Positions 18,984 through 60,570 of a stretch of DNA of 64,000 nucleotides are shown here, piece after piece. The notes beneath the pieces are model-generated. The model made no database searches. It was not told the DNA's origin and worked only from the letters and a program-made list of their open reading frames with translations. The DNA comes from a virus (Duplodnaviria > Heunggongvirae > Uroviricota > Caudoviricetes): the IMG/VR virus record IMGVR_UViG_3300008262_003982. One strand, given 5' to 3'. Position 1 is the stretch's first letter. Each line of letters begins with the position of its first letter. Made by a program: the position numbers and the translations under genes.

Positions 18984-19676
18984 TTGGAAAAAAATCTATC
19001 ACAAGTCCTTCGCGAACGCATGAAGGCAGACGGCAAGAGATTCTGGGCTGGTGACAACATCAGTGATTATGTTGCTGAGTCAGATCGTGAACATTTGATT
19101 ATGGAGGCCACTCAAGCATTTGAACAAGTTCTCGATACACTACTAATTGACAGGGAAAATGATCCTAACTCACAAGGCACGGCGCAACGCCTTGCAAAAA
19201 TGTACTTCAATGAAATTATGGCTGGTCGCTATGAGACGAGCCCTAATGCTACGGCTTTCCCAAACGATACGGACGGAGCATACGAAGGTATGCTTGTGGT
19301 GCGTTCAGAGCTTAAGAGCATGTGTTCGCATCATCACCAGCCTGTTACGGGTGTGGCTTATATTGGAATCATTGCTGGCCCCAAACTTATTGGTCTATCC
19401 AAGTATACCAGGATTGCGCAATGGTGTGCCCGTCGAGGCACTCTCCAAGAAGAGCTATGTATGGATATTGCTCGCGAAATTGAATTCGCGACCGGGTCCA
19501 AGGATGTTGCAGTTTATATACAAGCTACCCATGGTTGTTGTGAGAATCGCGGTATCATGGCTCACTCTAGTCTCACCCAAACAACAGTTTTACACGGTGC
19601 GTTTAAATCAGACCAAAGTGTAAAAAAAGAATTCTTTGACAACATCAAACTACAACAGGACTTTGCACCACGATGA
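18984..19676 (+). CDS. folE: GTP cyclohydrolase I
   Basis: CSHHHQP...VAYIG, GLSKYTRIAQW and HGCCENRGI match the FolE active-site blocks. Confidence 0.8.
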   Translation: MEKNLSQVLRERMKADGKRFWAGDNISDYVAESDREHLIMEATQAFEQVLDTLLIDRENDPNSQGTAQRLAKMYFNEIMAGRYETSPNATAFPNDTDGAYEGMLVVRSELKSMCSHHHQPVTGVAYIGIIAGPKLIGLSKYTRIAQWCARRGTLQEELCMDIAREIEFATGSKDVAVYIQATHGCCENRGIMAHSSLTQTTVLHGAFKSDQSVKKEFFDNIKLQQDFAPR

Positions 19677-22798: not shown

Positions 22799-23419
22799 AT
22801 GTTAGATCGAATCTTAAGTGGCGTTGACCGTGCATTGGCCTACAAGCTCATGCTGGCACATATCATTATCATTGCTATCAGCAACTACATTGTGCAATTC
22901 AAATTCTCAGTGTTTGGTGCACCATTGGCAGCAGCCGCATTCACATTCCCACTAGTGGTTGTGTTGACCGACTTGACTGTGCGAATGTTAGGCAAACAAA
23001 CTGGTCGTGCGGTGATTGCATTGGCATTCATCCCTGCTATCATTGTGTCAATGGCAGTGGTCAAACTGGGCGGTGCTCCTGACTCAGTTGCTTTCCGCAT
23101 TGGTCTTGGCTCGGGTGTTGCATACTTTGTGAGCAACTTGCTTGATGTGTACGTGTTCCAATACATTCGTGAAAAGTACGCCACTTGGTGGATTGCTCCT
23201 GCATTGAGTTCAATTGTGAGCACATTCTTTGATACCTATGTGTTCTTCTTTACTGCCTTTGCTGGTGGCGCAAATGAGTTCATGGCTGCTAACTGGCACA
23301 TTGTTGCAACCAACAATTCAATCAGTAAGATCATTGTGAGTCTGTTGGTTATTCTGCCTGCGTATGGTTTCTTGTTGAATCACTTGCAGAAAAAGCTGGC
23401 TGCAGACAATCAAGCATAA
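22799..23419 (+). CDS. yhhQ: queuosine precursor (preQ0/preQ1) transporter, YhhQ/DUF165 family
   Basis: Multi-TM protein with the SNYIVQ, TDLTVR and FMAANW blocks conserved in E. coli YhhQ. Confidence 0.8.
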   Translation: MLDRILSGVDRALAYKLMLAHIIIIAISNYIVQFKFSVFGAPLAAAAFTFPLVVVLTDLTVRMLGKQTGRAVIALAFIPAIIVSMAVVKLGGAPDSVAFRIGLGSGVAYFVSNLLDVYVFQYIREKYATWWIAPALSSIVSTFFDTYVFFFTAFAGGANEFMAANWHIVATNNSISKIIVSLLVILPAYGFLLNHLQKKLAADNQA

Positions 23420-27007: not shown

Positions 27008-27853
27008 ATGAAATTAAAAGTAAGTGAACTATTTTATTCTGCTCAGGGCGAAGGACGCTATATTGGAGTTCCTTCTATCTTCTTACGAACCTTCGGTTGC
27101 AACTTTACGTGTTCGGGATTTGGATGCCAACCCGGTGATAAGAGCACTGAGGCAGATGACGTCGCAAAGAGCGTTCATCTCTACAAGACTTTTGAAGAGC
27201 TCCCGTTGGTTAATACAGGATGCGATTCGTATGCAAGTTGGCATCCTGACTTTAAACATCTAAGTCCCACATACACAGCACAAGAGTTAGTTGACAAAAT
27301 GGCTGCGCTGTTGCCCAATGGCCACTGGCAACAACCAAACGGCAATTCAGTGCATCTTGTGATCACAGGTGGCGAGCCATTGCTAGGTTGGCAACGTGCA
27401 TATCCTGAACTGTTGAATCTGTTGCACGAACGTGGACTGCGACACATTACATTTGAAACCAATGGTACTCAAGAACTCACAAGAGAATTCAAACAGTATC
27501 TGTCTGAATGGTTTGGCGAGATCACATTCTCAGTAAGTCCTAAACTTAGTGTCAGTGGTGAAAAGTATGAAGATGCTATCAAACCTGACATTATTTGGGA
27601 TTACGAAACTCACGGTGTTACCTATTTGAAGTTTGTTGTTGGTCACATTGATGATTTCAAAGAGCTTGATCTAGTAGTTGACGACTATCGAACCCGTGGA
27701 TTTAGCGGACCAGTTTTTGTGATGCCTGTTGGCGGTGTTGTGAGTGTGTATGATGGCAATAGAATTCACGTTGCCGACGAAGCACTCAAACGAGGTTATT
27801 GGTACAGCCCACGATTGCATGTGGACCTCTGGGGTAATGGATGGGGCAAATAA
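27008..27853 (+). CDS. queE: 7-carboxy-7-deazaguanine synthase (QueE-like radical SAM)
   Basis: N-terminal ELFYSAQGEG...FGCNFTCSGFGC matches the QueE hallmark SxQGEG plus a Cys cluster. Confidence 0.7.
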   Translation: MKLKVSELFYSAQGEGRYIGVPSIFLRTFGCNFTCSGFGCQPGDKSTEADDVAKSVHLYKTFEELPLVNTGCDSYASWHPDFKHLSPTYTAQELVDKMAALLPNGHWQQPNGNSVHLVITGGEPLLGWQRAYPELLNLLHERGLRHITFETNGTQELTREFKQYLSEWFGEITFSVSPKLSVSGEKYEDAIKPDIIWDYETHGVTYLKFVVGHIDDFKELDLVVDDYRTRGFSGPVFVMPVGGVVSVYDGNRIHVADEALKRGYWYSPRLHVDLWGNGWGK

Positions 27854-43614: not shown

Positions 43615-43697
43615 GCCAGAGTGGTGGAATGGTATACACAGCAGACTTAAAATCTGCCGCTTGCAAGGGCATACGGGTTCGAGTCCCGTCTCTGGTA
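43615..43697 (+). tRNA. tRNA-Leu (TAA), type II
   Basis: Acceptor GCCAGAG/CTCTGGT, anticodon loop cuUAAaa, long variable arm, T-arm ACGGGTTCGAGTCCCGT. Confidence 0.8.
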
Positions 43698-43706
43698 CCA
43701 AACATT

Positions 43707-44240
43707 ATGAACAAAAGTCCTACTCGCGGAACCTTTCACAGTCAATGCAGAATTGAAGATGTCATTGCGGAAGGAGGAGATCCTGCCACTGACGAAGATG
43801 TTCAACGAGCTTTAGATCTTGAACGCATGATCAACGAACATCAGGCTCAACGCGAAGCCGACGAACGGTGGCGAGAAAACAATCTTGAATATGATTTGCG
43901 TAGCACCAAGTGGGTTTGCGACAAAGCCAAGGCCAGCGATACCTACGCTCAAAACATCTACGCAGCCTTGTGCAATCAAGACTGGCAACGCAACGAAGTA
44001 TGGCCTTTGCTAAAGGGAGAGACCTACAGTTGTTCGTGGCGCTATGCCGGGGGTATTGTTGCCGACATGCGTGAACAAGGTGACTATATTGATTGGTACT
44101 GTTCGGGCATAGGCGATGGACTGGGCAATGGTGATGCTGACGGTGTTAAAAGATATGTACCCGAAGGACATGTCACAGAAGAAATCCAGGAAGACTTTTT
44201 TAAGTTGGGCTGGATCCCAGTAGATAGCGGGGATGAATAA
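43707..44240 (+). CDS. hypothetical protein
   Basis: The listed ORF starts inside tRNA-Leu. The first ATG after the tRNA is at 43707. 177 aa. Confidence 0.45.
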   Translation: MNKSPTRGTFHSQCRIEDVIAEGGDPATDEDVQRALDLERMINEHQAQREADERWRENNLEYDLRSTKWVCDKAKASDTYAQNIYAALCNQDWQRNEVWPLLKGETYSCSWRYAGGIVADMREQGDYIDWYCSGIGDGLGNGDADGVKRYVPEGHVTEEIQEDFFKLGWIPVDSGDE

Positions 44241-44390
44241 ATAGGTATGTGCTCAATCCCATAAAAAAACTACAAGAAAATCTAGCCCGAGACTTGGTCA
44301 GTCTGGAGGACACAGACTTGGTGTCGGAACAACAACTAGACAAAATTACTGATGCATACGCACAAGTGTATGACATCATCTCCAAAGCAG

Positions 44391-44419
44391 TTGACAAGCC
44401 CAAAGAATAAATATATACT
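44391..44419 (+). promoter_or_regulatory. promoter TTGACA-N17-TATACT driving tmRNA precursor
   Basis: Sequence motif immediately upstream of the acceptor piece. Confidence 0.5.
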
Positions 44420-44455
44420 GCGAGTTATTGCTGTATGAAGCCGAGAGAAAAGTGT

Positions 44456-44490
44456 TCTGGACGGGGGTGCGAATCCCCCCAGGTCCACCA
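44456..44490 (+). ncRNA. ssrA: tmRNA acceptor piece 3' end (T-arm plus 3' acceptor strand plus CCA)
   Basis: T-stem GGGGG/CCCCC with loop TGCGAAT. CAGGTCC pairs with GGGCCTG at 44706, with one G·U. Discriminator A and an encoded CCA. Confidence 0.7.
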
Positions 44491-44705
44491 TAAGGAAGTT
44501 TAATGATAGGTTATGTTTTATTTTTGTTATTTTGGTTAGTGTTTGGTGTATTTTATTTTACACGTGATACCACATTGGACGAAGAGAAAATAAAAAACTG
44601 TGAGTTATGGTAATATGGAAAATTTAGCAAAATTTTTATTAATTGTTTTTCCAATATTATGCTTGTTGTTAACAACATTAAGCGTAGATTAAGTTTCTTT
44701 ATGAT

Positions 44706-44866
44706 GGGCCTGACCTAGATTCGACAGGGCAAAGAGTAACAGAGTGGACAGCACGGTAGGCGATGACCGTAAATCAAGCAAAACTTTTATCTGCAAATGA
44801 TGAAAAATTCTTGATGGCCGCTTAAGGTCGTCTAGGGTAGGAAATACCTCGTAACAGAAACCACCA
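44706..44866 (+). ncRNA. ssrA: tmRNA coding piece (5' acceptor strand, D-like GAUUCGAC, tag ORF)
   Basis: GGGCCUGACCUAGAUUCGACAGGG matches the tmRNA 5' consensus GGGGCUGAUUCUGGAUUCGACGGG. Tag frame GCA AAT GAT GAA AAA TTC TTG ATG GCC GCT TAA gives ANDEKFLMAA. Confidence 0.7.
44793..44825 (+). other. tmRNA tag-peptide reading frame (A)NDEKFLMAA-stop
   Basis: Resume codon GCA. The ...AA-stop ending is typical of SsrA degradation tags. Confidence 0.65.
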
Positions 44867-44894
44867 AAATGGCTGCGAAAGTAGCCATTTTCTT
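44867..44894 (+). terminator. rho-independent terminator
   Basis: AAAATGGCT-GCGAAAGT-AGCCATTTT hairpin followed by TTTCTTT. Confidence 0.6.
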
Positions 44895-44921
44895 TGACAT
44901 TCTCAGTGTTTGTGCTATATA
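44893..44921 (+). promoter_or_regulatory. promoter TTGACA-N17-(T)ATATAAT for porin gene
   Basis: Sequence motif. Confidence 0.5.
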
Positions 44922-48625: not shown

Positions 48626-49620
48626 GATACATAGGGCAGTTTATTGTCCTGTGCAGTATGGTTCGCCCAGCTGTACGAAGAATAACTGGGGTGACCCAGC
48701 CAAAGGATGTATGCCTACATAAGTCCGCCAGCAATGGTTCATGTAAACAAGCCTGCTCAGGTCCGTGAGGATCCGATCACTGATAAGACCGGTGGTTGTA
48801 ACAATGACGCTGGGAGTATAGGAAAGAGCTGTAACTTACCGGCCCGCAAGGGTAACCGGAGTTGCAGAAAAGTAACAGGTGGTGCTGACTTCTATACAAA
48901 ACCAGCCCAGTTAATTGGTATGAGAAAGGGTAGCGTATCGGTCCGAGGGGTTGCACCCAAGGGCTCGTATGCAGTTTGAGTGGTTGGTGGAGGTACGCGA
49001 AAGCCGAGACCCGACACTGATCGCAAAAGACGTCTGAGTAGTTCGCAAGACAAAAGGAACGTGGTGTGTTGTATTTTGTATTCCAAAAGAGTATGAAGCA
49101 ACTGAGTCAGCACATCGCAGTAGGTTGATATAGCTCATCGTAGAGCAATTCCCTGTTAAGGAATAGGCTGTGGCTTCAAAACCACTATCTAACATAAAAG
49201 CAAAGACTGACTCGGTCATGTGTGAAAAGTATCTAATGCTGTAGCCGCAAGGCAATACAGTCAGACGTAACTCGCAAGGTGAAATCTGTTTATACTGGAA
49301 GTTTCGTAACTGTTTAGCGACAGTGAATGGCTCTAAAGGTCAACGGGATAGATGGTGTAGAGTAGCATGTGATGACAAGACTACTGCCTGTCTTTAAAAA
49401 CGGCGATACTGGTAACAGACTGTGATACATAGCAATATGGTTGCAGTGGAAATCGGAAGAAAGCAGACTCGCAAGGTTTGTAATAATGTCCGAGGTGTTA
49501 CTGGGTTAGGATGTATTCTCAGTCCGCCACTTTATATACAAACGCACTCCGTACCCGTTGGTGGTTGCTCAATTCAATGAATTGTTCCCCAAGCATAGAG
49601 TGTGTTTCTATATAAATAAT
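48626..49620 (+). ncRNA. candidate large structured ncRNA (about 1 kb, GNRA tetraloop-rich)
   Basis: Sits downstream of the promoter at 48596. No credible ORF. Repeated cGCAAg/cGAAAg hairpins: CCCGCAAGGG, GCGAAAGC, GCCGCAAGGC and CTCGCAAGG, the last occurring twice. Confidence 0.4.
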
Positions 49621-50991: not shown

Positions 50992-52116
50992 CTATTGTAT
51001 AACTTCTTGCGCTAAATTTTCTAGCACACCAAACACTGAGTTGATTGTGTGTTGTGTGATGTTGCGCAGTCGAATCAGCTGGCTTGTTCGAGACACAAAC
51101 TGTTCTCGTTGAGCAGGTGAGTGCTGTATTGTTTCTAGCATACTACATGTATCAGTCATTAACTGTTTTTGTGTTTTGGTAAGTTTTGCAACTGTTAGTT
51201 GTTTTTGTATAACTGCAATCAACTGCTGACGTTCGAGAGTGGTAAGCACTTCTGACTGTAGCCAAACAGGATAAGATAAAGGGATCACATTAAATGGCAG
51301 TCGACGGACATTGGCGTATTCAAACAGTTCAATGATATTTTGCAAATTTAAAAATTGCAACACTGCCGACAAATGTATCTTTGCTCCGGGCAATGCCTGT
51401 TGTAGTGCAACAATGTTTGATTGCACAACTGACCATTGTGCCGGATAGCGTAAAAATTCAAATGTTGGCCCAGTACCGTCTACACTAACCATCACATCAA
51501 GGTCAGATATTTTTTGTAACCGCTCAAGATGTTTTTTGGTTAGTTGAGTGGCATTGGTAATAATTCGTGTTTTAAGATTTTTTTCAATAACCGCATCGAG
51601 CAATTCAATATTGTGTTTGGTTACAAAAAATTCGCCGCCAATAAAACCTATTGATTTAAGGTCTGGCAACTGTTTAATAACTTCAAGTGCATGATCTTCG
51701 TGATTGATCACTATTGATTGTTTAATCCATCCAAGTTTGGCATATTCCTGACCTGATTTGGTACTATGAGAAGGATTGCACGACAAGCAACTGAGATTAC
51801 ATGCGTTGCCAGGGAAAATTTCCAAGTCAACAATTTTAGTTTTGGTTTCATGCTCAAACACTTTAATATACTTGTTTCGGATACTAGGCAAGTTATTATC
51901 TTCGTCTACTTTGCATGCCTTGCATCCATCTGGCAATGATTCTTTTGTAAGCAAATGTTGCTGAAGAGACGCTAGTTCAGATGATTGCAAATAATCATTA
52001 ATCGTTGCGTACTGCTTGATAGGTTTGTAATTGCAACAAGGCCTAACAGTTGGATTGAGATCTTTATCAGTATACATATGAATACTAACAAATGGTTTTG
52101 GACAATATTTGTTCAT
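50992..52116 (-). CDS. radical SAM protein (additional N-terminal Cys cluster; function unknown)
   Basis: CNLSCLSC (CxxxCxxC) plus an N-terminal CPKPF...RPCC. 374 aa. Confidence 0.6.
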   Translation of the reverse strand: MNKYCPKPFVSIHMYTDKDLNPTVRPCCNYKPIKQYATINDYLQSSELASLQQHLLTKESLPDGCKACKVDEDNNLPSIRNKYIKVFEHETKTKIVDLEIFPGNACNLSCLSCNPSHSTKSGQEYAKLGWIKQSIVINHEDHALEVIKQLPDLKSIGFIGGEFFVTKHNIELLDAVIEKNLKTRIITNATQLTKKHLERLQKISDLDVMVSVDGTGPTFEFLRYPAQWSVVQSNIVALQQALPGAKIHLSAVLQFLNLQNIIELFEYANVRRLPFNVIPLSYPVWLQSEVLTTLERQQLIAVIQKQLTVAKLTKTQKQLMTDTCSMLETIQHSPAQREQFVSRTSQLIRLRNITQHTINSVFGVLENLAQEVIQ

Positions 52117-53892: not shown

Positions 53893-54666
53893 ATGGCTAC
53901 AATTACTCAAATAGAACAGTACTGGGATCAACAACCTTGTAATATAAAGCATGGGTTGGCACCAGAAGGCACAGAAGAATTTTGGAACAACATCAATCGT
54001 CGTAGATGGTTTGTTGGGCCGCATTTGTGGCAGTTGGCCGACTTTGAAAACTGCAAGGGACGGCGGGTGCTAGAACTAGGATGCGGCATTGGATCTGATG
54101 CTGAACAATTTGTACGGCATGGTGCTGAATACGTTGGGATTGATCTTAGCAGTCGTAGCATAGAACTTTGTGAGCAGAGATTTACTGTTATGGGATTAGA
54201 TGCTGAATTCTATCACATGGACGCAGGCGACAGTCAGCGTGTTGCAGGGCTAGGACAATTTGATATGGTGTATGCTTGTGGTGTATTGCATCACTATCCC
54301 AATGTAGAACAAGTGGTCAGCAATGCTTACGCAAGTCTAGCATCTGATGGGGAGTTTCGTTTCCTAGTGTATGCTCGCAACAGTTGGAAATGGGCAATGA
54401 TTCAGTCTGGGCTGGACCAGTTTGAAGCGCAAGACAACTGCCCATATGCCAGAGTTTACAGTCAAGGAGAAATACAAAAACTGCTGGACGTACACTTTGA
54501 TATCAAAAGCATCAAGCAAGATTACTGTTTTATGTACAATGTAGAGCAGTACAAACAAGGAAATTATGTGTTGGAACCATGGTTTGCTGCCATGAGCGAT
54601 GCACAACGCCAGGCTGTCAATCAACAGCTAGGTTGGCATTTAAGCGTGATTGCCGCAAAGCAATAA
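53893..54666 (+). CDS. class I SAM-dependent methyltransferase
   Basis: Motif I VLELGCGIGSD. 257 aa. Confidence 0.6.
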   Translation: MATITQIEQYWDQQPCNIKHGLAPEGTEEFWNNINRRRWFVGPHLWQLADFENCKGRRVLELGCGIGSDAEQFVRHGAEYVGIDLSSRSIELCEQRFTVMGLDAEFYHMDAGDSQRVAGLGQFDMVYACGVLHHYPNVEQVVSNAYASLASDGEFRFLVYARNSWKWAMIQSGLDQFEAQDNCPYARVYSQGEIQKLLDVHFDIKSIKQDYCFMYNVEQYKQGNYVLEPWFAAMSDAQRQAVNQQLGWHLSVIAAKQ

Positions 54667-55924: not shown

Positions 55925-55955
55925 CCTTGACTTAGGTATGTTCTATACTATATAC
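55925..55955 (+). promoter_or_regulatory. promoter TTGACT-N16/18-TATATA/TATACT
   Basis: Sequence motif upstream of the rubrerythrin gene, followed by an AGGAGG SD. Confidence 0.45.
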
Positions 55956-55980
55956 TAGTGATGTCACTATAGGAGGAAAC

Positions 55981-56418
55981 ATGACACAATCTGTAAAAGG
56001 TACCCGTACCGAAGAAAACTTGAAGGCGGCATTTGCCGGAGAATCGCAAGCCAATCGTCGATACTTGTATTTCGCAAACATGGCCGACGTAGCAGGCGAC
56101 AATGACGTTGCTGCCTTGTTCCGTTCAACTGCCGAAGGCGAAACTGGACATGCACACGGTCATATGGAATACTTGATCGAAGGTGGTGCTGGAGATCCCG
56201 CCACTGGCATGAGTGCCAAATCTGTTGAGCAGGCTCTGGAAAGTGCTATTCATGGCGAAACACATGAATACACTGACATGTATCCTGGCATGGCCAAAAC
56301 TGCCAGAGACGAAGGCTTAGACGAGATTGCTGACTGGTTTGAAACACTGGCCAAAGCCGAACGCTCACATGCCAATCGTTTCACCAAAGCCCTGGCTGCT
56401 CACAAAGAAGCACAATAA
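55981..56418 (+). CDS. rubrerythrin ferritin-like di-iron domain protein
   Basis: N-terminal [23 protein letters not shown] is the rubrerythrin signature. ExxH pairs are present ([13 protein letters not shown]). Confidence 0.7.
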
Positions 56419-56428
56419 GGAGACGGAA

Positions 56429-56557
56429 ATGGAATACGTATGCACTGTATGTGGCCATGTCCACAATGAAGAGACAGATGGTAAATTTGACGATTTGCCA
56501 AAATACTATAACTGTCCAGAGTGTGGTTGCGGTAAGGAAGAATTCCAGGCAATGTAA
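56429..56557 (+). CDS. rubredoxin-like zinc/iron-ribbon protein (42 aa)
   Basis: CTVCGH...NCPECGC gives two CxxC pairs. AGGAG SD. Corresponds to the C-terminal domain of fused rubrerythrins. Confidence 0.55.
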   Translation: MEYVCTVCGHVHNEETDGKFDDLPKYYNCPECGCGKEEFQAM

Positions 56558-56558
56558 C

Positions 56559-56590
56559 TTGACAACAATGTAGAACTGTGTTATACTGGT
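56559..56590 (+). promoter_or_regulatory. promoter TTGACA-N17-TATACT overlapped by an 11 bp perfect inverted repeat (candidate operator)
   Basis: ACAATGTAGAAC-N12-GTTCTACATTG spans the -35 to -10 region. Confidence 0.45.
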
Positions 56591-56596
56591 TCTACA

Positions 56597-56785
56597 TTGT
56601 TAAATAGTTATATGAACGATCCAAAATCTTCCAAACTCACTGACGCTGTGCGAGAGGCTCTTGCCAAAAAGCATGAGGCTGCTCGACCCACAGTAAAAAC
56701 CAAAACTACCAAGACCAAACAAAACTACGGCGCACCAATGATCAAAGGAGCACCTGTTAGAAAAGCCAGCGGAAGAGGTGGCTGA
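56597..56785 (+). CDS. hypothetical small basic protein
   Basis: 62 aa, Lys/Thr-rich. Confidence 0.4.
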   Translation: MLNSYMNDPKSSKLTDAVREALAKKHEAARPTVKTKTTKTKQNYGAPMIKGAPVRKASGRGG

Positions 56786-57090
56786 TGGCTAACGACTTTG
56801 CTAAATTCAAAAACTCAGCTCGCCGTCATAAAACAGATGTTGCAATTGCTAGACAAGTCAAAATTGCCAAAAGTCATAGCACCTACAACTTACGAAGCAT
56901 TAGGCAAACACATCGCCTGGCCAAACATCATGCCATGGACTGCGGCAATCCTGCATGTTACTTGTGTGGCAATCCACGTAAGACACATAAAGACAAACTT
57001 ACAGCCCAAGAGAAAAAACTATTTCAAGATTTAGATTCCCTCAACCACCATCACTCAAACGGAAACAACAATGAAAATTATTCACAGTAA
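56785..57090 (+). CDS. hypothetical protein with Cys4 zinc-ribbon (CGNPACYLCGNP)
   Basis: 101 aa ORF. Confidence 0.4.
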   Translation: MANDFAKFKNSARRHKTDVAIARQVKIAKSHSTYNLRSIRQTHRLAKHHAMDCGNPACYLCGNPRKTHKDKLTAQEKKLFQDLDSLNHHHSNGNNNENYSQ

Positions 57091-57340
57091 CGACAGAACA
57101 GCCGGGTTGACCAGCGAAGCCGCAGTAGCCGCAATTGGCAATCGCTATGACTTGGTGCTAGTGGCTTCTCGACGATTGCGCGAACTCAATCGCGGCGACA
57201 TGCGAAAAGTTGCAAGTAAAAACAGCAACTCAGTGGCAGTACTTGAAGAAATTGAACAAGGCAAAATCACAAGAGACTATCTCTATCGCGAACAAGATTT
57301 AGAACCCCGACGTAGACGTAGAACCAATGGATCTATCTAA
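57071..57340 (+). CDS. rpoZ: DNA-directed RNA polymerase omega subunit (RpoZ) homologue
   Basis: AVAAIGNRYDLVLVASRRLRELN...VAVLEEIEQGKI aligns with E. coli RpoZ [22 protein letters not shown]...VIALREIEEGLI. Confidence 0.7.
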   Translation: MKIIHSNDRTAGLTSEAAVAAIGNRYDLVLVASRRLRELNRGDMRKVASKNSNSVAVLEEIEQGKITRDYLYREQDLEPRRRRRTNGSI

Positions 57341-57752
57341 AGAAGACGGAGATAGAAGAAACAGTCTGCCTTACCCAATGGAGTTGGGCAGTCCTGCGTT
57401 TGCCCCTGTTCCTGTTGAACGAGAAAAAGATGTCATACTCAATGTAGGGCGAATGCATGCTCAACAAGAATATGACAGGATCATGCAACAAGTTGAAGTG
57501 TTAAAACAACAGGCCGACGCACTTCAACAACGCCTGCATGTTAGTGAGATCATGCACGGCGTCAAGTACGGCTTACAACCTCGACATGGTAAAACTTACT
57601 ATGTGTATTTTAACTCAATAAAAAACGAGCATTGGTTGAGTATGAATCATCCGCATCACTGGTGCGCTGGCCCTGGAGAACAGCACACCTACGTGATGGC
57701 AGTTAAAATGCTCGGCGACTCGACCTGGCAAGAAGTGCAATTAGACACATGA
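57327..57752 (+). CDS. hypothetical protein
   Basis: 141 aa ORF. Confidence 0.4.
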   Translation: MDLSKEDGDRRNSLPYPMELGSPAFAPVPVEREKDVILNVGRMHAQQEYDRIMQQVEVLKQQADALQQRLHVSEIMHGVKYGLQPRHGKTYYVYFNSIKNEHWLSMNHPHHWCAGPGEQHTYVMAVKMLGDSTWQEVQLDT

Positions 57753-58618
57753 AAATACAACTACACGAAAATGGTTGGACTTCAATCATTACTGATATTG
57801 ATTTACGTTCTGCTTCACAGCAAGAGATGAATACCATTGCTTGGCTTGCTGCCAAAGACACCGTGGTTGTGATACGCGATCAACACCTTTTGCCCGGAGA
57901 CGAAGTTGACATCTGTGAAAAAATTGGTGCATGTGAGCAAGTGGCGCCGGCTAATACGCCAACACCGGGCACAAAATTAGTACAAGGCGGGCGTGGTAAA
58001 ATTGTCAGAGTAGGTGGCGGTGGTCACCATCATGGACAACCAGGTGTGTTTGAACATGTGAGTGATCTAGATTGGCACTGCAATAGAACCGGTAGTGAAG
58101 ACCGAGATCCGTTGATTTGGTTGTATTCAGTAAAAGATTCTGTTGGCAGCCGAACCAGTTGGATCAACAACATTTTGAGTTATCAAGATCTTGACCAAGA
58201 ACTCAAAGAACAAATCAAAGATTTAAAACTGGTCATGGGGTTTGATGCTAGGGTGATCTCTGAAGACACTTACACAATCACCAGTCGAGATTCAAATGCC
58301 ATCAACCACAATTGGTATCCAAGTTTGTTACACACCAACCAGGCTGGTGTCACAGGCATGTTTTTTTCGTTTTTACAAATTCATCAGATACTGGGTTTTG
58401 ACAAAGACAAAAGCGATGCCCTAATTCAAAAATTACGACAACATGTGGAGCAAGAAAAATACACATATCACCACGATTGGCAAGACGGTGACATTGTGTT
58501 AAGTGAACAATGGTTAAGTATTCACAAAAGATGGCGCTGTGAAAACATTCAGAATCGAGTGGTGCATCGCATTGCTCTTAACTTTGATCACTGCAACATT
58601 TCTAATACTTTAGTGTGA
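57749..58618 (+). CDS. TauD/TfdA-family Fe(II)/2-oxoglutarate dioxygenase-like, paralogue 1
   Basis: DWHCNRTG compares with TauD WHTD. The C-terminal HHDWQDGDIVLSEQWLSIHKR compares with TauD RxxWxxGDlvxWDNRxxxHRA. Confidence 0.5.
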   Translation: MKIQLHENGWTSIITDIDLRSASQQEMNTIAWLAAKDTVVVIRDQHLLPGDEVDICEKIGACEQVAPANTPTPGTKLVQGGRGKIVRVGGGGHHHGQPGVFEHVSDLDWHCNRTGSEDRDPLIWLYSVKDSVGSRTSWINNILSYQDLDQELKEQIKDLKLVMGFDARVISEDTYTITSRDSNAINHNWYPSLLHTNQAGVTGMFFSFLQIHQILGFDKDKSDALIQKLRQHVEQEKYTYHHDWQDGDIVLSEQWLSIHKRWRCENIQNRVVHRIALNFDHCNISNTLV

Positions 58619-58650
58619 TTGACCAAAAATTCCTGATCTGCTATAATTAC
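58619..58650 (+). promoter_or_regulatory. conserved promoter copy 4 (TTGACC-N17-TATAAT)
   Basis: The upstream stop TGA lies inside the -35 box, as in the copies near 37.3–37.9 kb. Confidence 0.55.
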
Positions 58651-58918: not shown

Positions 58919-59539
58919 ATGATGCCAGCAACATTTTTGGTAAGCGACACGCATTTTGGTCATGTTGGCGTGTGCAAGTTTACACACCCAGATGATGACA
59001 CTGTGAAATTGCGTCCGTGGGATGATCCTGCAGAGATGGATGAGGAAATGATCCGCCGTTGGAACGACCGTGTTCGTCCATCAGACAAGGTCTACCATTT
59101 GGGTGACGTGGTTATTAACCGCAAGGCATTGCCTACGTTACATCGCTTGAACGGCGACAAGGTATTGATCCGCGGCAACCATGATATCTTCCGTGATGAT
59201 GAGTACCGCAGGTACTTTCGTGAATTGCGAGCATATCATGTGTTGAACGGAATGATCTTGAGTCACATTCCTGTGCATGAATCTAGCTTGGGTCGCTTTG
59301 GTGTAAACATCCACGGACACTTGCACGCCACTCGAGTTAAGAAAGCTCGTGGTGTTGATGCCCGTACAGGAGAGATCTTGTATGGCACAGAACTGGATGT
59401 GCGGTATCATTGCGTATGTGTGGAGCAGACTGATTTTGCGCCTATCTTGTTGGAAGATGTGTACAAACGCATTGAAGCAGAAGGTGGACGGATTGGCTTG
59501 CAAAACGGCAATTTCAAAACTGAGCATCATGTAGATTAA
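58919..59539 (+). CDS. calcineurin-like metallophosphoesterase (Ser/Thr phosphatase-like)
   Basis: Motifs DTHFGH, HLGDVV and RGNHD. Confidence 0.7.
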   Translation: MMPATFLVSDTHFGHVGVCKFTHPDDDTVKLRPWDDPAEMDEEMIRRWNDRVRPSDKVYHLGDVVINRKALPTLHRLNGDKVLIRGNHDIFRDDEYRRYFRELRAYHVLNGMILSHIPVHESSLGRFGVNIHGHLHATRVKKARGVDARTGEILYGTELDVRYHCVCVEQTDFAPILLEDVYKRIEAEGGRIGLQNGNFKTEHHVD

Positions 59540-59658: not shown

Positions 59659-60570
59659 ATGAAATTAACTTTAGATCCAAACGGCTGGGTAGTGCATGTA
59701 GATCAACTAAACGTGCTAGATGTAAACAGCACCGAACGCGATCAATTAAGAACGCTACCTTATACCAACTTGCTGGTTGTAATCCATAACACGCAACCGT
59801 TAACCATTGATCAATATCATCAATTTACTTCTGGTGTGTTTGATGATCTCAATAACGATCTTCCAGCCAAAGAAAAAATATTTGTCGAACAAACCAACAA
59901 AGAAATTATCAGAGTCACTGGTAAGAAAGATGTCCACGGTGAAATCACTGGATTATTTGGCATGCCAGATGATTTGCCTTGGCACTGCAACGAACCAGGA
60001 AGAACTGCCGCAGAACGTCCCGATGCTTTGTGTTTGTACGGGGTAGAACATACTGAAGGCAGCATCACAGGATTTACCAACAGCATACAAGCATTAAACG
60101 ATCTTAGGCAAGCAACCGATACACCAGTTGGACTATTAAGAAGTCTGGATCAGCTCATGTGTTATTACAATTACTCAGGCAGTACAGATAACGGGCCTAT
60201 GGCTGCAGACGTTAACTATCAAGGCAGAACAGGATTTAACAAATTTGTTACTCAAAACAAATCAGGGGCCACGGGCATCCATTGGTCACCCATGCAAAAT
60301 CCAATATTCTATATTGGCAAAACACCAGTTCCAAACGCTGGACAACAAGCATGGTTCAGTTATCTGTACAAATTTCTAACTCAGCCCAAGTACCAGTACG
60401 CTCATCATTGGCAAGACTATGAAATAATTATCAATTGCCAGTGGTTGAGCATGCATGCTCGTCCTGCATTTGAAAATATTGAAAACCGTCTGTTGTGGAG
60501 AGCCATGGGCTATGTTAGCCCATTTGATGGGTCAGCGATTGATACTGGCCAGCTTGAATTGCGCCAGTAG
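59659..60570 (+). CDS. TauD/TfdA-family dioxygenase-like, paralogue 2
   Basis: Paralogue of 57749..58618: PWHCNEPG and the C-terminal YAHHWQDYEIIINCQWLSMHAR. Confidence 0.5.
   Translation: MKLTLDPNGWVVHVDQLNVLDVNSTERDQLRTLPYTNLLVVIHNTQPLTIDQYHQFTSGVFDDLNNDLPAKEKIFVEQTNKEIIRVTGKKDVHGEITGLFGMPDDLPWHCNEPGRTAAERPDALCLYGVEHTEGSITGFTNSIQALNDLRQATDTPVGLLRSLDQLMCYYNYSGSTDNGPMAADVNYQGRTGFNKFVTQNKSGATGIHWSPMQNPIFYIGKTPVPNAGQQAWFSYLYKFLTQPKYQYAHHWQDYEIIINCQWLSMHARPAFENIENRLLWRAMGYVSPFDGSAIDTGQLELRQ

Follow-up and report, generated by a model that had tools for sequence, protein, structure and literature searches.

Bacteriophages are known to reprogram the RNA polymerase (RNAP) of their hosts through sigma factors, anti-sigma factors, ADP-ribosylation, and small inhibitors, and we found no description of a phage that supplies a core subunit of the enzyme. 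The present study asks what a gene for omega, the least understood RNAP subunit, whose clearest regulatory role in Proteobacteria is to form site 1 for guanosine tetraphosphate (ppGpp), is doing in a phage genome. The gene in question lies at positions 57071–57340 (+ strand) of a 64,000-nucleotide stretch of Caudoviricetes DNA (IMG/VR record IMGVR_UViG_3300008262_003982), the whole of which is hereafter called the window. A reading made from the letters of the window alone, hereafter the original prediction, had taken this open reading frame (ORF) for a homologue of the bacterial omega subunit RpoZ, of a kind rarely reported in phages, that could be built into host RNAP and bias it towards the phage’s many sigma70-type promoters. 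We find that the ORF is almost certainly a real, functional omega homologue residing in a phage, and that, far from being an isolated oddity, it belongs to a phage gene family that is widespread and under selection, shows a specific alteration of structure at the ppGpp site, and has a coupled partner. Judged from sequence comparisons, the explanation that best fits the whole, and that we consider somewhat probable, is a captured and selected replacement omega that remodels host RNAP and is probably blind to ppGpp at site 1.

Identity of the omega gene and of its genome

The gene is an ATG-to-stop ORF for a protein of 89 amino acids (aa), MKIIHSNDRTAGLTSEAAVAAIGNRYDLVLVASRRLRELNRGDMRKVASKNSNSVAVLEEIEQGKITRDYLYREQDLEPRRRRRTNGSI, which includes the segments IGNRYDLVLVASRRLRELN and VLEEIEQGKI and can be divided into an N-terminal extension (residues 1–10), a glycine (G12) at the position of Arg3 in Escherichia coli omega, a helical core (residues 15–72), and a basic PRRRR tail (residues 79–83). 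It matched the Pfam family PF01192 (RNA_pol_Rpb6) with an E-value of 1.4e-10 (41.4 bits against a gathering cut-off of 26) over profile positions 5–52 of 53 and the NCBIfam family TIGR00690 (rpoZ) at 34.4 bits against a cut-off of 23.6, and it scored below the threshold of the narrower equivalog NF001579 (22.7 against 58). A phmmer search against all Protein Data Bank (PDB) chains returned solely omega subunits down to an E-value of ~0.1, aligned over residues 12–79, with the best matches to Vibrio cholerae 9gdo_E (4.3e-10) and E. coli omega (4e-8). An 89-aa gene with the same Pfam match was also called by independent gene callers in public metagenomes.

An AlphaFold2 model built from 55 family sequences had a mean predicted local distance difference test score (pLDDT) of 79, with 87–92 over residues 21–70, and predicted helices at residues 15–22, 25–41, 53–62, and 68–72. 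When this model was compared with the PDB using Foldseek, the 36 strongest matches were all omega chains of RNAP structures, the best from E. coli and V. cholerae superposing with a root-mean-square deviation of 1.5–1.9 Å over ~62 residues, a target-normalised template-modelling (TM) score of 0.65–0.78, and 44–46% identity. The residues G23 N24 R25, R34 R35 x R37, and E60 I61 E62 x G64 are invariant or nearly so in the 55 family members and the same in E. coli, and E. coli omega has the same residue in 11 of the 15 family-invariant columns, those of GNR, the RRxR helix, and EIExG among them; AAKRAR and ALEEI, the counterparts of the phage RRxR helix and EIExG, are described omega motifs (PMC7700224). 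The homology put forward by the original prediction is thus borne out by the RNA_pol_Rpb6 and rpoZ profiles, both of which score above their curated cut-offs, by the omega matches in the PDB, and by the predicted fold, and the objection that the likeness might be confined to a generic helix is excluded by the extent of the profile match and of the superposition.

The genome around the gene is that of a phage. Among the genes of the window are those for a phage exonuclease and for a family B DNA polymerase of T4 type (PHROG 262, 645 bits), together with a phage-type QueE, methyltransferase genes, and many auxiliary metabolic genes, and the nearest cultured relatives of the polymerase are from jumbo phages, namely Sinorhizobium phage Phosso (469 kb; 51% identical at the aa level) and Agrobacterium phage Atu_ph07 (490 kb; 47%), followed by Vibrio and Rak2-like phages. 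The chromosomal context of rpoZ in E. coli and its relatives is gmk-rpoZ-spoT; no such surroundings were found at the window omega locus, where the neighbours are rubrerythrin, rubredoxin, two small ORFs, DUF2452, TauD, and metallophosphatase genes. A megablast search of the 10-kb neighbourhood against GenBank phages gave no nucleotide match besides one tRNA. The window is a fragment of a T4-like jumbo phage and not of a bacterium, and the phage location assumed by the original prediction holds on the strength of the T4-type DNA polymerase, a tRNA array, and relatives in IMG/VR. T4-like phages rely on host RNAP for their own transcription, and no virus-encoded beta or beta′ genes were seen among the ~50 window ORFs that were scanned or in the ~10-kb flanks of related loci.

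Size, selection, and ancestry of the phage omega family

A search of 5.8 billion proteins returned at least 206 protein clusters related to the phage omega at E ≤ 1e-3, the best 120 of which are 82–102 aa long, share 59–100% identity over the aligned part, and are all metagenomic, some of them on contigs of 100–361 kb. Relatives are encoded by at least 437 IMG/VR viral contigs, which reach 343 kb, and an identical copy of the window protein appears in 191 indexed blocks of a public assembly collection. Gene order is conserved across related loci: the 5′ part consists of an RNaseH-like gene, a variable redox or metabolic set (rubrerythrin/rubredoxin or AhpC/CMD), and a small ORF, and the 3′ part of a ~100-aa ORF, omega, often DUF2452, and a metallophosphatase, followed by MoxR-like AAA and DUF2201/VWA proteins.

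No omega gene of this family was found in cultured phages by tblastn against 50,697 GenBank phage records (INPHARED), and a PHROGs search with the phage omega returned no family. The tblastn matches that the phage records did give were rejected as bacterial or contaminated records with enterobacterial or Acinetobacter rpoZ. Two 240-kb contigs of ‘Acinetobacter phage MD-2021a’ (CAKLQH020000003.1, CAKLQF020000004.1) carry a bacterial-type rpoZ and look bacterial or contaminated; MG065691.1 and MG065686.1 (Campylobacter phages A11a and A18a), OR845831.1, OR851528.1, AFYI01000003.1, and AGRM01000003.1 each gave an identical 41.3% match; and the rejected records include Salmonella whole-genome shotgun contigs and ‘phage’ fragments of 1.6 kb whose rpoZ is E. 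coli-like.

Just one close match (55%) emerged from 185,579 species-representative genomes, on a 183-kb contig (NZ_JBBAKG010000001.1, here L090) in a metagenome-assembled genome (MAG) labelled ‘Haliscomenobacter sp.’, which we take for a phage contig of this clade because it carries the same phage RNaseH-like and rubrerythrin genes. A second contig of the clade (L006; GCA_005786765.1, SYDF01000031.1) is also binned in a bacterial MAG, either through mis-binning or as a hint of the host. True cellular omegas are 32–43% identical to the window protein, and all taxonomically labelled ones are gammaproteobacterial (Kangiellaceae, Profftia, Competibacteraceae), in a thin sample of 10 loci recovered from the species-representative genomes with narrow peptide patterns.

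The gene is essentially unreported. Full-text searches, with the subscription literature outside their reach, returned no description of a phage-encoded omega, and the gene goes unmentioned in jumbo-phage reviews and comparative analyses, in the huge-phage survey, and in the paper on a new aquatic jumbo-phage lineage; we found no published account elsewhere. Many close family members are automatically named ‘DNA-directed RNA polymerase subunit omega’ by the Joint Genome Institute, and these are database labels only. The original prediction’s wording, ‘rarely reported’, is apt for a gene that is present in no cultured INPHARED phage and described in no paper that we found.

Codon-aligned pairwise comparisons (Nei-Gojobori) of 61 distinct viral omegas gave a median ratio of nonsynonymous to synonymous substitution rates (dN/dS) of ~0.25, a rough value as dS is near saturation, and by this measure the family is under purifying selection. 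In a neighbour-joining tree of 86 alignment columns, without support values and with narrow cellular sampling, all viral omegas form one clade nested among gammaproteobacterial omegas and adjoining the E. coli/Profftia pair. The simplest reading would be that an rpoZ of gammaproteobacterial type was captured once and has since been passed on vertically over a long time.

Rebuilt termini, coupled partner, and proposed action on host RNA polymerase

Both ends of the protein have been rebuilt. In the ungapped phmmer alignment, A2-R3 of E. coli omega stand opposite A11-G12 of the window protein, with nine extra residues before them, and across 171 distinct viral omegas the residue equivalent to Arg3 is Gly in 168, Arg in two, and Gln in one, behind 4–18 extra N-terminal residues (median 7). 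All eight cellular omegas that were recovered begin with MAR (MAN in the endosymbiont Profftia) right before the conserved core. Residues 2–5 of the omega N-terminus coordinate the phosphates of ppGpp together with beta′ R417 and K615 (PMC7676912), and MAR predicts ppGpp binding by RNAP at site 1 in Proteobacteria (PMC6912228); the window omega lacks this motif. In its place, Thr precedes (A/L)-G in 124 of 165 extensions and an Asp or Glu falls within the prior five residues in 153 of 165, a pattern that we read as a semi-conserved (D/E)-x-T motif. The extension is evidently translated, because its codons vary synonymously under amino-acid conservation: all four GGN codons are found at the invariant Gly (29/11/9/5), and ACT, ACA, and ACC occur in roughly equal numbers at the Thr. 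A downstream TTG start at Leu13, which would drop the extension, was rejected, as this codon is TTG in merely 4 of 54 relatives and the residues before it vary synonymously. At the other end, where E. coli omega has a long acidic tail (net charge −2 over the stretch compared), the phage protein has a short basic one, PRR(R/K/Q) being present in 141 of the 171 distinct viral omegas at a median net charge of +3.

Three distinct viral omegas (L069, L085, L090), near the base of the viral clade, start with MA(R/Q)IT. MAR-type omegas of 66–75 aa, with no partner gene beside them, occur in the more distant phages L085/L087/L089 and L069 (IMG/VR contigs of 47–111 kb), and in L085 the omega gene follows a homologue (46% identity) of the window ORF at 43629–44240 and two fatty-acid-desaturase paralogues.

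The partner gene, up101 (56785–57090, + strand), encodes a protein of 101 aa, and in the window its last 20 nt also form the start of the omega gene. Of 58 distinct extension-type loci, 51 have it directly 5′ of omega with a stop/start overlap, typically of 4 or 8 nt outside the window, and none of the three MAR-type loci does (Fisher p = 0.003, phylogenetic non-independence being ignored). With a dN/dS of ~0.18, the partner is conserved more strongly than omega, and it has an invariant Cys/His knuckle, H-x3-C-x4-C-x2-C, within HHAMDCGNPxCxLCGNPRK followed by T-x-QEKRLFQ; profile searches gave no Pfam match and no PDB sequence match, and its AlphaFold model, with a pLDDT of 52, was unusable and was not carried into a fold search. 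Its family comprises 2680 clusters, against 206 for omega, and extends to phiKZ-like Pseudomonas jumbo phages, for example PA10_00231 of pPa_SNUABM_DT01, a distant but convincing homologue (hhalign probability 97.4%) with the same knuckle and with no omega gene adjacent to it. This homologue is an 84-aa hypothetical protein (210340–210594 in pPa_SNUABM_DT01) that is also present in ~29 other phiKZ-like Pseudomonas phages, and the shared knuckle, K(H/R)HA-x-x-CG-x2-C-x-LC-x-NPR, defines a small-protein family across unrelated jumbo phages. Conversely, the partner is absent beside four extension-type omegas (L059, L060, L067, L070) and interrupted by an insertion or deletion in two further loci (L040, L042). 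Both sets of cases weaken the idea of the partner as an obligatory factor specific to omega; the two genes are linked in this clade and not mutually obligatory. Among the altered loci, L042 and L066 have a partner gene truncated before the Cys knuckle, and homing-endonuclease-like ORFs of the NUMOD3 type lie near omega in L040 (5′ of omega, − strand, in the partner’s place) and in L104/L105 (5332–6015).

Partner and omega lie in an operon preceded by a sigma70-type promoter-like site, TTGACA-17-TATACT with a TG extended −10 (56559–56587, + strand, 11 of 12 consensus matches). A site of at least 10/12, often 12/12 with TG, stands 5′ of the partner gene in 44 of the 49 related loci with enough upstream sequence, at a distance of 2–43 nt, or of ~180–200 nt where a small ORF intervenes, against an expectation of ~0.17 sites per 450 nt taken from the window’s own density. 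Because the promoter-like site is conserved, it argues for transcription of the operon by the unmodified host sigma70 holoenzyme, plausibly early in infection. The original prediction was right about the homologue, its phage location, and its novelty, and its idea that the protein could be built into host RNAP is plausible in view of the conserved beta′-binding core; a bias of RNAP towards the phage’s sigma70-type promoters has no direct support, and what the data show is a conserved promoter-like site before the omega gene itself. The prediction missed the features that we find most informative, namely the systematic loss of the MAR motif associated with ppGpp site 1, the change to a basic tail, the translational coupling to a partner gene, and how large the phage family is.

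Taken together, these features suggest the following course of events. An ancestor of an uncultured T4-like jumbo-phage clade would have captured a gammaproteobacterium-type rpoZ once and kept it under purifying selection. In infection, host RNAP, still unmodified, would transcribe the operon from the near-consensus sigma70 promoter, probably early, and omega would be produced together with the translationally coupled Cys/His-knuckle protein. The phage omega probably binds host beta′ at the omega site, which is made likely by the conservation of the beta′-clamping helical core, and it would take up that site in newly assembled or omega-free RNAP. In this omega the MAR N-terminus, omega’s half of site 1, has given way to a longer N-terminus with Gly for Arg3 and (D/E)-x-T, and the acidic C-terminal tail to a short, basic PRRR sequence. 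As a proposed consequence, RNAP with this subunit would stop responding to ppGpp via site 1 and phage transcription would be insulated from the host stringent response; phage factors, the co-expressed partner for example, may also find docking sites on the new termini. A near-invariant change of Arg3 to Gly, with the N-terminus buried under an extension, is on the face of the alignment what one would design to disable the omega half-site. That the loss or alteration of site 1 is itself the selected function is nevertheless a tentative suggestion, about which we are doubtful. That a phage gains from neutralising the stringent response has been shown for T7, where the route is another one (PMC13483052). 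The boldest form of the proposal, which we hold to be slightly less likely again, is that a jumbo-phage clade swaps a core subunit of host RNAP for an omega that deletes its half of site 1, with an acidic (D/E)-x-T extension that possibly plugs the pocket, and that this omega and the knuckle protein together yield a stringent-insensitive, phage-dedicated RNAP; if true, this would be the first phage takeover of RNAP through core-subunit substitution and a new strategy against the stringent response.

Several points weigh against a ppGpp-blind replacement omega. E. coli RNAP with omega residues 2–5 deleted still bound ppGpp, ~2-fold worse, in one assay, and loss of site 1 alone has no more than modest phenotypes in E. 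coli (PMC7676912); given this residual binding and these phenotypes, the selective value of a site-1-blind omega is not obvious. The omegas of L085 and L090 keep MAR and persist in phages, so its loss is not obligatory, and RNAP that is already assembled may exchange its omega slowly. The hints of the host disagree, with a tmRNA of alpha type, an omega of gamma type, and one MAG bin in Bacteroidota, and the RNAP of the host may or may not have a site 1. The roughness of dN/dS near saturation and the limits of the neighbour-joining tree count on the same side.

The same termini can be accounted for differently if the phage omega, seated on host beta′, serves as a docking platform whose extension and basic tail recruit a phage transcription factor, with RNAP thereby redirected to phage promoters and ppGpp blindness a side effect. 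The prime candidate for recruitment would be the coupled knuckle protein, which overlaps extension-type and not MAR-type omegas and is even more conserved than omega, and a precedent exists in the regulator GafA of the Rhodobacter capsulatus gene transfer agent (RcGTA), which binds omega directly (PMC9638019). However, some extension-type loci lack the partner or have it disrupted, the partner family is far larger than that of omega, and the phiKZ-like homologue without an adjacent omega implies that the partner needs no phage omega; the association statistic, moreover, ignores phylogenetic non-independence, and the partner’s model is unusable. We regard a docking platform as unlikely. Plain supply, in which the phage omega would act as a chaperone that keeps beta′ folded and RNAP assembled during host shut-off with no regulatory change, strikes us as a little less credible still. 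It agrees with the conserved beta′-binding core, with the established role of omega as a folding latch for beta′ (PMC7700224), and with the MAR-retaining L085 and L090, which resemble an unmodified omega; yet both termini are rebuilt and near-invariant over 171 sequences, which implies a changed rather than a merely kept function, and omega is dispensable in E. coli, where GroEL substitutes for it (PMC7700224), leaving a weak selective reason to supply it.

It is also conceivable, and in our estimate quite improbable, that the phage omega is a poison subunit that outbinds host omega on the RNAP core and damps initiation at host promoters in aid of shut-off. Dominant-lethal, more structured mutants of E. 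coli omega do bind alpha2-beta-beta′ more tightly and impair initiation, with most of the substitutions in the C-terminal CR3 region (PMC7700224). In that region the phage family conserves a distinct segment, (T/G)R(D/E)YL(Y/F)K, predicted to be helical, but no match to the known lethal substitutions was found at the level of residues. A general poison would also harm the phage itself, for T4-like phages need host RNAP and no phage RNAP genes were seen in the window or the flanks. The last reading, that the omega has no phage function and is either a cell’s own rpoZ on a bacterial contig or a recent passenger gene without a role, draws on the contigs binned in the ‘Haliscomenobacter’ MAG and in GCA_005786765.1 and on the many host-like metabolic genes around omega, and it deserves next to no credence, being already contradicted by the T4-type polymerase, phage exonuclease, QueE-like genes, 28-tRNA array, and GOLLD RNA of the window, by the missing gmk and spoT neighbours, by the hundreds of IMG/VR contigs that share the gene and its synteny, by the same phage genes on the MAG contig L090, by the 32–43% identity of true cellular omegas, and by purifying selection across a family diverged to ~50% identity.

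A replacement omega, the explanation that we favour, can be set against known systems. With gammaproteobacterial RpoZ (E. coli 6pss_K, V. cholerae 9gdo_E) the phage protein shares the Pfam and TIGRFAM families, the four-helix arrangement, GNR(F/Y), RRxR, and EIExG, at 44–46% identity over the ~62-residue core; it differs in its phage operon, its extension with Gly for Arg3, its basic PRRR tail, and its coupled knuckle protein. The RPB6/RpoK proteins of nucleocytoplasmic large DNA viruses (Marseillevirus, Tupanvirus) are likewise virus-encoded members of the Rpb6/omega superfamily, and are weak structural matches (Foldseek E-values above 1, against 1e-3 for E. coli omega); they are parts of the virus’s own multisubunit RNAP, whereas the phage protein is of the bacterial omega type, with no viral beta or beta′ seen in the window or the flanks of related loci. 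The proposed logic, a small phage protein that alters host RNAP, is that of T4 AsiA, gp33, RpbA, and Alt/Mod, Xp10 P7, and P23-45 gp39 (PMC3950348, PMC6624301), but those modifiers are phage-specific, are not homologues of RNAP subunits, and act by addition, whereas the phage omega would act by substitution. GafA of RcGTA, a phage-derived element that controls transcription via omega (PMC9638019), is analogous to a possible interplay of partner and omega; it uses host omega, whereas the jumbo-phage element brings its own, and no homology between GafA and the partner was seen, although no comparison aimed at it was made. Omega-like proteins of uncultured Caudovirales (A0A6J5T227, A0A6J7WH19 in BFVD), automatically named ‘DNA-directed RNA polymerase’, have the same fold and 30–38% identity, but are 72–73 aa long.

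The family offers a natural experiment, with hundreds of diverged omegas in which the beta′-binding core is kept, MAR is consistently gone, and the tail is changed. If these proteins do bind host RNAP, they would give a direct handle on the in vivo roles of site 1 and of the omega termini, a new means by which phages escape starvation-linked restriction, and a ready tool in the form of an omega with an orthogonal response to ppGpp. Since the genes are now labelled as ordinary omega and the contigs are sometimes binned into bacterial MAGs, the family is also worth flagging for genome databases.

Neighbouring genes and RNAs of the window

The first gene of the omega operon is a small ORF at 56612–56785 (+ strand), of 57 aa from its ATG or 62 aa from an upstream TTG at 56597; it has no Pfam match, is kept at 42–69% identity in a subset of related loci, and is called as a 57-aa gene by public pipelines (L101, 2542–2715). 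On the other side of omega, a gene for a 141-aa DUF2452 protein (57327–57752, + strand; PF10504, 36.4 bits), the first 14 nt of which overlap the end of omega and which occurs 3′ of omega in part of the family, is followed by a gene for a 289-aa TauD/TfdA-family dioxygenase (57749–58618, + strand), the last in the string of overlapping genes. The next promoter-like site after the operon is at 58619–58647. A metallophosphatase gene (58919–59539) lies between the dioxygenase gene and a second TauD/TfdA-family paralogue (59659–60570, + strand), and genes for a fatty-acid desaturase, an Asp/Asn hydroxylase-like protein, and a hexapeptide transferase occupy 61–63.5 kb. Directly 5′ of the operon are a rubrerythrin gene (55981–56418, + strand) and one for a 42-aa rubredoxin-like CxxC...CxxC protein (56429–56557, + strand), a pair with its own sigma70-like promoter (55927–55956). 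The slot of this pair holds AhpC/CMD/ArsC/TerC genes in other family members, and because its content differs among them it can be described as a variable oxidative-stress cassette.

Across the window, near-consensus sigma70-type sites are enriched on the coding (+) strand, which has 24 of at least 10/12 where shuffled sequences have 10.6 ± 3.9 and the − strand has 13, and three sites are perfect at 12/12 (37640, 42980, 44894). The genes for a GTP cyclohydrolase I (18984–19676), a Vut_1/YhhQ-type transporter (22799–23419), and the QueE-like radical SAM enzyme (27008–27853) look like parts of a 7-deazaguanine pathway of queuosine or archaeosine type, possibly for the modification of DNA or tRNA. 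The tRNA array comprises 28 tRNA genes of 20 amino-acid specificities, all on the + strand between 43442 and 55878 and interspersed with ORFs, among them a radical SAM gene (50992–52116, − strand) and a tRNA-methyltransferase-like gene (53893–54666). Within the same array is a GOLLD RNA (49061–49525, + strand), a full-length match to the Rfam model RF02032 at 204 bits against a gathering threshold of 150, in which a tRNA-like match (49124–49194) is embedded. A permuted, two-piece tmRNA is found at 44387–44916 (+ strand; RF04321, 115 bits; alpha_tmRNA RF01849, 57 bits), for which ARAGORN predicts the tag peptide ANDEKFLMAA.

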